A stretch of DNA of 7,777 nucleotides, from IMG/VR virus record IMGVR_UViG_2703718812_000020, positions 1 to 7,777 of that record; one strand, given 5' to 3'. This DNA is from a virus. Its lineage: Duplodnaviria > Heunggongvirae > Uroviricota > Caudoviricetes. Positions 5,808-6,301 of the stretch are shown one piece after another (the first letter of the stretch is position 1; each line of letters starts with the position of its first letter). The notes beneath the pieces were generated by a model that saw only the letters and a program-made list of their open reading frames with translations, was not told the DNA's origin and did no database searches. Position numbers and translations under genes: made by a program.

Positions 5808-6163
5808 GCGACCTTATTATCCATGCGCGGTATTGTCGCCGTATTCCTGCATTAACAGAGACCGCAGCCCGACAGGGAGACTCCTCTGCGCGAGTGTGCG
5901 GGGATAATCAAAAACGATACACACCGGGGTTTACCGCGTTAACGGAGCGCGGCGTTGTCCCCTCATAGTCGCCTGTCCAGTGCGATGGTGGAAGAAGCCG
6001 GATGTTTATCACTATTAATTGATAACACAGAAATGGATTCATTGAATTTCAGCACGTTTTTGTATTCGTGTTATTGAACATCTGTTTATTTTACTTTTAA
6101 CATATTGATAATAAAAAGAGCTGTAAATCTTTAGATGAGTCGATTTTGTCCGGGGAAGTTCAA

Positions 6164-6301
6164 ATGGATTTTATGCTGACGGTTTCTGGTGTGGTTATCC
6201 TGTCCATTGCTTATACTGCAGATAAATATGGCTGCCATTTGTTATCACGTATTGGCGCTTATTGTTCGTTGATGCTGATTTTCTCGTCGCTTTTTTTTTG
6301 A
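6164..6301 (+). CDS. candidate small hydrophobic ORF, 45 aa (MDFMLTVSGVVILSIAYTADKYGCHLLSRIGAYCSLMLIFSSLFF)
   Basis: ATG with GGGGAAG 5 nt upstream, directly after a very AT-rich promoter-like stretch, ending in a T9 run. Speculative. Confidence 0.2.
   Translation: MDFMLTVSGVVILSIAYTADKYGCHLLSRIGAYCSLMLIFSSLFF

Follow-up and report, generated by a model that had tools for sequence, protein, structure and literature searches.

A probable moron-type cassette with a small membrane-protein gene in the Rz-to-cos region of an Escherichia coli lambdoid prophage

Among the described systems that can be compared with the small prophage gene analyzed here, the classical morons of phage lambda, bor and lom, come first. 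The gene in question, ECs1538 in prophage Sp6 of Escherichia coli O157:H7 Sakai and EDL933_RS08445 in strain EDL933, lies in a 7,777-nucleotide (nt) stretch of viral DNA (IMG/VR record IMGVR_UViG_2703718812_000020, positions 1 to 7,777; hereinafter, the window) that matches a prophage of E. coli O103:H2 12009 with 100% identity and is recognizable as the late region of a lambdoid prophage. It encodes a hydrophobic peptide of 45 amino acids (aa), follows a strongly AT-rich island and, together with this island, probably belongs to a moron-type accessory cassette in which a small membrane-protein gene is expressed from a promoter of its own. The small gene and bor occupy the same slot between Rz and cos; both are small, optional inserts that are present in only some of the related prophages, and the product is associated with the envelope, as predicted in the case of the small gene. 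Furthermore, similarly to bor, the small gene shows RNA and ribosome signal in uninduced lysogen cultures. There is no sequence similarity between the two: bor encodes a 97-aa lipoprotein on the opposite strand, whereas the small gene encodes a predicted 45-aa hairpin peptide on the late-operon strand and is not known to have a serum-resistance or any other phenotype.

Another moron, gp15 of phage HK97, reportedly described by Cumby et al. in 2012, is said to be a small inner-membrane protein responsible for superinfection exclusion. The likeness consists in a moron that provides a small inner-membrane protein (a predicted one in the present case) from a prophage, and gp15 is the model behind the functional guess made below. 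It differs in its tail-region position and has no detectable homology to the small peptide; exclusion is proposed here by analogy. The small toxins of E. coli (Hok, TisB, ShoB, ZorO, Ldr and Ibs, and the type V toxin GhoT with two transmembrane (TM) segments) are likewise shorter than 60 aa and hydrophobic, are frequently located in prophages and share a divergent promoter-like site upstream. In contrast, the small gene has no family match, neither a predicted antisense overlap nor a structured leader is seen, and the ORF is translated under normal growth. The bidirectional sigma-70 promoters with start sites 18 bp apart, the commonest architecture of bacterial bidirectional promoters (PMC10268837, summarizing Warman et al., 2021), resemble the AT-rich island in the shared, pseudo-symmetric -10 element and in the setting of AT-rich acquired DNA, with the difference that here the promoter is predicted from sequence alone. 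Finally, ECs1538 is among the short annotated genes evaluated in a search for orphan small proteins of enterohaemorrhagic E. coli (EHEC) by ribosome profiling (RIBO-seq), in which it is neither assigned a function or a start site nor analyzed comparatively (Hücker et al., 2017; PMC5597208). What is already known is, accordingly, an annotated gene and an entry in a published RIBO-seq supplement that is a member of no described protein or RNA family. New here are the boundaries and distribution of the cassette, the comparison of its alleles, the prediction of a bidirectional promoter and the attendant caveats.

A mosaic cassette between Rz and cos

In most Stx1, Stx2a and Stx2c phages, the match to the window extends to approximately positions 6002-6006 and is followed by divergent sequence, and similarity to an Stx2c phage and to lambda restarts at 6492, within the ynfO gene. 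The cassette is delimited by this divergence and this return of homology, with junctions at 6002/6003 and 6491/6492 relative to Stx2a phages, Stx2c phages and lambda (Table 1). In the alignment with lambda, only Rz (5155-5537) and the 335 bp preceding cos (6492-6826) match the window, the latter segment with 92% identity to the final 334 bp of lambda (48169-48502). Because these are the last bases of lambda, cos is expected at about 6826, and because nothing else aligns, the region of the small gene represents the variable Rz-to-cos interval. In lambda, by the gene order of its record, this interval contains bor. The comparison with lambda-family right arms that the original prediction had called for thus places the locus in a variable slot the flanks of which match lambda.

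The cassette is present in 734 of the 5426 complete E. coli genomes, in one to three copies each and at 96.5-100% identity; the carriers include O157:H7, O26:H11, O103, O45, O104:H4 and O55:H7 strains as well as isolates from dog, river water and wastewater. Only 2 of 50,697 phage records contain it, and it is missing from most Stx phages that have the left flank up to about 6002. The left flank is more common, being found in about 1570 genomes in up to nine copies, with six to eight near-identical copies per O157 genome; the small ORF and the spacer that follows it are single-copy in O157 genomes.

The packaging genes next to the cassette are not the same in all carriers. It is paired with lambda-type Nu1 terminases in the window, in O104:H4 and in SHP24, with an HNH and terminase module in O157 Sp6 and in phage PPyecE, and with a TerL-nuclease module in L089-L091. 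Given these three different packaging modules, the cassette, as far as genome comparison goes, assorts independently, in the manner of a moron. Three alleles are available for comparison: the main type, a cassette of 76% identity in two pig isolates (SHP24 and L003), and an intermediate form in L089, in which the segment from 6003 to about 6416 is kept and the right-hand context is different. The suspicion that this is horizontally acquired DNA is borne out in the form of a mosaic cassette, comprising the island and the open reading frame (ORF), that some phages carry and close relatives lack at this position. The base composition points in the same direction, with a GC content of 0.29 in the island and 0.41 in the ORF versus 0.49 in the window and 0.53-0.59 directly upstream. 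Altogether, the cassette appears to behave as a moron in the bor slot, with four of the five moron hallmarks present or plausibly present.

The right junction falls inside ynfO, so that the last 17 codons of this gene move with the cassette (the ynfO 3' end at 6441-6491); YnfO consists of 61 aa in the window versus 75 aa in Stx2c phages. The GC-rich segment to the left of the cassette is common to most lambdoid and Stx prophages and ends exactly at the junction. It is covered by the old Sakai ORF ECs1537, which a TAG codon at 5966-5968 interrupts in the window and in most other copies.

Table 1. Features of the window discussed in the text
Feature	Position	Strand	Comment
STnc100-type sRNA	221-393	+	between DUF3927 gene and esterase gene; RF02076, 104 bits, E = 1.5e-22
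Sialate-esterase gene (DUF6645/SASA)	531-2380		frameshifted in RefSeq
Class II holin	2673-2879		RefSeq context
Uninterrupted 329-aa ORF after holin	2884-3873		RefSeq: partial YdfR; phage Stx2_95: full hypothetical protein
Lysozyme	3916-4449		
Rz	5092-5586		
74-aa ORF after Rz	5583-5807	+	matches PHROG 2571 positions 100-172 only (profile length 291)
GC-rich non-coding segment	5808-6002		GC 0.53-0.59
Variable cassette	6003-6491	.	roughly 490 bp; AT-rich island, small ORF, spacer and last 17 ynfO codons
AT-rich island	6003-6163	+	GC 0.286; would comprise promoter region plus 5' leader of small gene
Most conserved cassette block, non-coding	6035-6118	.	proposed core promoter and upstream region
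Predicted sigma-70 promoter	6074-6110	+	TTGAAC 6074-6079, 18-nt spacer, TAACAT 6098-6103, start A6110
Predicted divergent sigma-70 promoter	6092-6127	-	TTTACA 6127-6122, 17-nt spacer, TATGTT 6104-6099, start A6092
IHF consensus match	6098-6110	-	consensus WATCAANNNNTTR, perfect match TATCAATATGTTA; overlaps shared -10 region
Shine-Dalgarno sequence GGGGAAG	6152-6158	+	5 nt upstream of ATG
Small gene (ECs1538)	6164-6301	+	45 aa, MDFMLTVSGVVILSIAYTADKYGCHLLSRIGAYCSLMLIFSSLFF, GRAVY 1.21; 46 aa in the commoner T8 allele
T9 homopolymer	6291-6299	+	last T is first base of TGA stop
Spacer, poorly conserved	6302-6440	+	convergent with ynfO; probably the 3' untranslated end of the small-gene transcript
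ynfO (YlcI/YnfO family, DUF3950)	6441-6626	-	Pfam PF13132, E = 4.9e-20; RefSeq; convergent to small gene
Small terminase subunit	7081-7560		

The small gene and its product

The small gene is represented in RefSeq by the hypothetical proteins WP_000347012.1 (45 aa) and WP_000347013.1 (46 aa). The original prediction described a hydrophobic 45-aa ORF that has a reasonable ribosome-binding site and ends in a run of nine T, and all of this is found in place (grand average of hydropathy, GRAVY, 1.21; Shine-Dalgarno (SD) sequence GGGGAAG). The GGGGAA core is kept in all three alleles despite the divergence of the leader around it; Hücker et al. position the SD of ECs1538 4 nt upstream of the start, with a dG of -3.6 (PMC5597208). 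An alternative in-frame start, TTG at 6146 (GTG in the SHP24 allele), would add six residues, and some depositors annotate a 51-aa protein. The ATG at 6164 is preferred because the added residues are poorly conserved and the alternative start has no SD.

The T-run at the 3' end is polymorphic in length, with T8 in 79 and T9 in 12 of the 91 fetched copies. The T9 allele of the window encodes a peptide ending in ...SLFF and the majority T8 allele a 46-aa peptide ending in ...SLFFE; a 49-aa protein variant ending in ...SLFLSKLY, found on 207 contigs, is read as T7. This variation alters only the extreme C-terminus. As an intrinsic terminator, the T9 run was rejected since no hairpin precedes it.

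The frame of the small ORF is the only one that is open in all three alleles, and the start codon, the length and the SD are kept without any insertions or deletions, whereas the downstream spacer is rich in them; lack of conservation of the frame, on which the original prediction would have been given up, is thus not what the alleles show. Other frames and the minus-strand ORFs at 6131-6238 and 5908-6042 were rejected, being closed or frame-shifted in the other alleles. The replacements in the peptide are mostly conservative (V/I, S/A, M/I, F/L), and the central ADKYG..LLSRIGAYC segment is nearly invariant. The Nei-Gojobori (NG86) estimate of dN/dS is 0.31 (Fisher p = 0.016), a value that later simulation showed to be optimistic; 80 IMG/VR loci that had been chosen for an identical protein were excluded from this estimate.

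An alternative view of these data is that there is no gene at all, just a chance ORF in xenogeneic AT-rich DNA that is subject to pervasive transcription and appears conserved due to recent spread. The copies are indeed all from E. coli, mostly at more than 96% identity, 33-46% of the trials with 24 simulated random substitutions leave an open frame, and spurious promoters are a known property of acquired AT-rich DNA (cited as background in PMC10268837). Nevertheless, the substitution level is 17% in the ORF compared to 33% in the leader and 40% in the spacer, the share of transitions is 75% in the ORF against 53% in the flanks, and the joint probability of keeping the frame open and reaching at least the observed BLOSUM score is 0.018 if the transition bias is taken from the flanks and 0.049 if it is taken from the ORF itself. 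To this are added the SD and start codon, which persist while the surrounding leader diverges, and a RIBO-seq coverage of 0.98 with a ribosome coverage value (RCV) of 0.46, above the thresholds of the authors of that study. A chance ORF is therefore quite unlikely. Taken together, the footprints, the conservation of the SD and the substitution pattern indicate that the small ORF is very probably a real, translated gene.

The expression data were obtained by Hücker et al. (2017; PMC5597208) from Sakai cultures grown without induction, by strand-specific RNA-seq and RIBO-seq. In lysogeny broth (LB), ECs1538 has 57.6 RPKM (reads normalized per kilobase and per million reads mapped) of RNA and 26.1 RPKM of footprints, with the RCV and coverage given above; these values satisfy the translation criteria of the authors. 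In brain heart infusion (BHI), the respective values are 32.7 and 7.3 RPKM (RCV 0.23, coverage 0.81), and in BHI with 4% NaCl at 14 °C, they are 2.1 and 0.6 RPKM (RCV 0.29, coverage 0.13), which corresponds to an approximately 15-fold lower expression under stress than in the BHI control (S2 and S7 Tables of PMC5597208). The classifier used in the same study labels ECs1538 as 'real', its S4 Table lists no terminator, and its S9 Table predicts an inner-membrane location with two TM helices. Thus, instead of the lack of transcription in either prophage state that would have spoken against the original prediction, there are both RNA and footprints of ECs1538 in uninduced Sakai. On the published LB data, and with the sequence being single-copy, the gene is expressed from a repressed prophage, as expected of a moron; spontaneous induction is a possible source of signal in uninduced cultures.

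Plus-strand RNA (38-50 RPKM) also covers the spacer, in the regions that Hücker et al. proposed as novel small genes XECs147 and XECs148 (PMC5597208). As genes, XECs148 (6335-6448) and XECs147 were rejected because SHP24 and L089 have disrupted versions of both frames. The RNA over the spacer, together with the lack of a terminator, suggests that the transcript reads through the T-run towards the convergent ynfO, which itself has 45.6 RPKM in uninduced Sakai (PMC5597208). Between alleles, the spacer shows 60-66% identity with 13-19 gap columns; its length polymorphisms include TTA at 6338-6340 and the G-run at 6382-6391, with three extra G in the window. A spacer hairpin, GGCTACCCCGTCAGAGGGGAAGCC at 6350-6373, is not followed by a T-tail.

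The original prediction also considered a toxin-like peptide, and a type I toxin-antitoxin-like arrangement would consist of a membrane toxin with a divergent antisense or 5'-overlapping small RNA (sRNA), as in tisB-istR, shoB-ohsC and zorO-orzO. The very hydrophobic peptide (GRAVY 1.2) is shorter than 60 aa, no promoter-like site in the window is stronger than the divergent one just upstream of the ORF, and the upstream block is strongly conserved, all of which would fit. The two predicted start sites, at 6110 on the plus strand and 6092 on the minus strand, however, would yield RNAs that do not overlap, the minus-strand region contains no terminator, stable fold or covariation, and the short mRNA leader lacks structure (z = +0.63). 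Furthermore, footprints cover 98% of the ORF in LB, unlike the case of silenced type I toxins, and two helices are predicted rather than one TM helix with a charged tail. The peptide has no Pfam match at E <= 1, which includes Hok, Ldr, TisB, Ibs, ShoB and GhoT as far as these are represented in the copy searched. With no match to a toxin family and an ORF that is footprinted in normal growth, the toxin idea finds no support and a system of this type is very unlikely.

The locus was likewise thought to be a possible sRNA gene, and an Hfq-type regulatory sRNA similar to AgvB, AsxR, HnrS, Pas or StxS, with an incidental ORF, would be in keeping with the many sRNAs that EHEC lambdoid prophages hold in moron slots (PMC4104026) and with the transcription of the region. 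Against this, cmscan detects no Rfam match at E <= 1 in the segment 5700-6700, AgvB, AsxR and Esr41 being among the families concerned and the distant STnc100 the only hit, and neither a stable fold (z = +0.63), nor covariation on either strand, nor an intrinsic terminator is seen. AgvB and AsxR are found at the pR' slot (PMC4104026), and HnrS is reported in Sp9, Sp10 and Sp12 but not in Sp6; the accessible parts of the supplements of the Hfq-CRAC study contain no entry near the Sp6 coordinates. A link to the Pas sRNAs was rejected as these adjoin holin and esterase genes. The sRNA proposal is thus unsupported and extremely unlikely to be correct.

The small membrane protein, in contrast, is favored by the RefSeq annotation, the footprints, the frame and SD kept in three alleles, and the predicted two-helix hairpin. 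AlphaFold2 models helices at residues 2-21 and 25-44 with a tight turn between them (mean predicted local distance difference test score, pLDDT, 86). Residues K21 and R29 flank the turn and D2 is near the N-terminus, so that, by the positive-inside rule, a hairpin with the loop in and the ends out is the most likely topology in this model. No match to the peptide was found in PHROG, NCBIfam or PADLOC, or in a scan of GTDB species representatives. In two word-indexed searches covering 5.8 billion clusters, all matches were E. coli alleles or fragments, and an exhaustive profile search with HMMER against 1.84 billion representatives retrieved only the peptide's own alleles and fragments and three long proteins with multiple matching stretches, which are taken as spurious, hydrophobic matches. 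By these searches, the peptide is an orphan restricted to E. coli. It is not listed in the EDL933 orphan-gene study, and searching main texts of the literature for the accession, the locus tag or the peptide string yielded nothing. A holin or antiholin role was rejected: the ORF comes after Rz and is separated from the upstream lysozyme gene by about 1.7 kb, a holin gene is already present upstream (Table 1), and no phage holin family of Pfam matches the peptide at E <= 1. The C-terminus of the peptide is hydrophobic (...SLFF) or carries a single E, unlike the charged tail of holins.

The AT-rich island and its candidate promoters

The island ahead of the small ORF, which was the starting point of the original prediction, is indeed the compositional extreme of the window. 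The lowest-GC 160-nt stretch of the 7777 bases begins at 6005 (GC 0.281, z = -2.96), and the GC content is 0.31 for 5990-6160, as originally delimited, and 0.286 for the island proper, compared to 0.492 for the whole window. A second AT-rich zone, at about 6834-7085 beside the expected cos, is the only other one comparable to the island. All six reading frames are closed across the island in all three alleles.

Two classes of motifs had been noted in the island. Of the repeated ATTGATAA motifs, exactly two copies exist, at 6018-6025 and 6104-6111, only the second of which is retained in the divergent allele; two copies of an 8-mer in AT-rich DNA are within chance expectation. As an operator, these repeats were rejected for lack of conservation in the SHP24 allele, and so was the palindrome TTATCA-N8-TGATAA at 6008-6027. 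This imperfect palindrome, written as TTATCAC-N6-TTGATAA, resembles lambda operator half-sites (TATCAC) and is probably fortuitous. As to the several promoter-like hexamers, a position weight matrix (PWM) scan of both strands gives 13 best matches for the window (>=10 bits), of which 5, including the top one, fall inside 5990-6175, in agreement with the original prediction; part of this enrichment is a product of AT-rich composition alone. A strict sigma-70 consensus scan does not exceed shuffled sequences, with one site found, on the minus strand at 6127-6099, versus 2.0 expected.

The comparison of the main and SHP24 alleles singles out one part of the island. Identity is 59% in 6003-6034, 89% in 6035-6118, 67% in the leader (6119-6163), 83% in the ORF and 60% in the spacer, and bases 6084-6118 are identical between these two alleles that overall are only 76% identical. 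RNAalifold applied to four alleles detects no RNA covariation in this upstream block on either strand. Because the frames are closed and neither structure nor covariation is apparent on either strand, the constraint on the block most simply acts on the DNA, to judge from these alignments.

The block contains two predicted sigma-70 promoters, one in each orientation. The plus-strand promoter is among the top 13 PWM matches of the window (score 10.3), would give a 54-nt leader and has its elements retained in all alleles (TTGAAT in SHP24). The minus-strand promoter is the best PWM match of the window (12.1) and its sole match to the strict consensus; no conserved minus-strand ORF and no terminator are found downstream of it. 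The two share the -10 base pairs, with -7T and -11A reciprocal, and their predicted starts, both A, are 18 bp apart, so that the sequence geometry (TAACAT/TATGTT, starts at 6110 and 6092) is that of an 18-bp bidirectional promoter. The IHF consensus match that overlaps the shared -10 region is the only one in the window, with 0.41 expected by chance, and is suggestive only, owing to its place in the fully conserved block. For ECs1538, BPROM gave a linear discriminant function (LDF) score of 8.0, among the highest values in the accessible part of the respective table of Hücker et al., 2017 (PMC5597208). The accompanying 'position 248' corresponds to about 6112 when the 300-bp input is numbered from its 5' end and to 5916 when counting goes upstream from the ATG; the latter reading fits poorly with the 3 RPKM of ECs1537, although ECs1537 is a multi-copy segment.

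An alternative that has to be weighed at this point is that the small gene has no promoter of its own and is the last gene of the lysis or late transcript, for instance, a lysis accessory gene, with the AT-rich island being a spacer, perhaps bound by H-NS or IHF, and the uninduced signal coming from spontaneous induction. The ORF is co-oriented with the late operon, 580 bp after Rz, and no terminator lies between the two. On the face of it, the RNA level rises sharply ahead of the ORF, with 10.1 RPKM for ECs1536 and 3.0 RPKM for ECs1537 upstream versus 57.6 RPKM for ECs1538 (PMC5597208); reads spread over six to eight paralogous copies, however, would dilute a level of about 58 RPKM to the 3-10 RPKM seen upstream. 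Conversely, a mere spacer would not be expected to contain a non-coding block that is more conserved than the ORF and that, by prediction, fits a complete bidirectional promoter. The convergent ynfO, which is not a late-operon gene, has a similar RNA level, and the cassette moves without being tied to the lysis and packaging modules. Transcription of the gene solely from the late operon is, accordingly, unlikely. A promoter belonging to the small gene itself is, in our estimate, likely, because a unique ORF is expressed in uninduced cells, in which late operons normally are terminated, the upstream block fits a promoter, and the cassette assorts independently. The independent transcription envisaged originally is thus likely, given the conserved promoter-like block and the uninduced expression; the RNA-seq step across the island is confounded.

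Several observations weigh against a moron with its own promoter and a functional membrane protein. The approximately 19-fold step from ECs1537 to ECs1538 is confounded, as the upstream segment is present in the six to eight near-identical O157 copies, and the handling of multi-mapping reads is not stated in PMC5597208, so that dilution could mimic the step. Both promoter starts are sequence predictions, and promoter-like hexamers are to be expected in any AT-rich DNA, the strict scan showing no enrichment over shuffles. A terminator of its own, which a moron is expected to possess, was found neither by scanning nor by folding, nor is one listed in S4 Table of Hücker et al. The constraint on the protein is moderate, and the count of amino-acid changes alone is not significant (P = 0.14-0.24). 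Finally, no homologue has an assigned function, so that the functional part of the explanation is a guess.

Prophage context, proposed mechanism and significance

The other genes of the window are listed in Table 1. The 74-aa ORF after Rz, which matches only part of its PHROG profile, may be a fragment of a longer ancestral gene. The STnc100-type sRNA lies next to the esterase gene; a 2026 preprint ties STnc100/PasD sRNAs to a position beside sialate-esterase genes. YnfO has a weak PHROG match to HicB-like antitoxins (E = 0.009).

Under the moron explanation, which we consider probable as a whole, the sigma-70 promoter of the island would be the plus half of a bidirectional promoter centered at 6098-6104, with a start near A6110, and a transcript with a leader of about 54 nt would be made in the repressed prophage. 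During lytic growth, the small gene would also be transcribed within the late operon. The GGGGAAG sequence would drive translation of the 45/46-aa peptide, which is predicted to form a two-helix hairpin in the inner membrane, with the conserved basic loop (ADKYG..LLSRIG) probably facing the cytoplasm, and the transcript would pass the T-run into the spacer, converging on ynfO. With regard to function, our best guess, by analogy with small membrane proteins such as gp15, is that of a membrane protein expressed in the lysogen, the target of which would be a membrane process, as with other moron products, for example, in keeping out incoming phage or in fine-tuning of the envelope or of lysis.

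A more far-reaching version of this scheme is rather improbable. The peptides would constitute a new, E. coli-restricted family of two-helix prophage proteins that benefit the lysogen by excluding superinfecting phages, by abortive infection or by restraining holin triggering; the minus arm of the promoter would produce RNA antisense to the 3' end of the late/lysis operon and so help to keep it silent, and the T-run would tune the C-terminal tail.

Altogether, about one in seven complete E. coli genomes carries and apparently translates a lineage-restricted membrane peptide. The practical value of this observation is modest, and current views of phage biology are unchanged by it. The locus can nevertheless serve as a test case for the build of morons in the Rz-cos slot, for the function of predicted 18-bp bidirectional promoters in acquired AT-rich DNA, and for the contribution of prophage-encoded orphan small membrane proteins to the lysogen.

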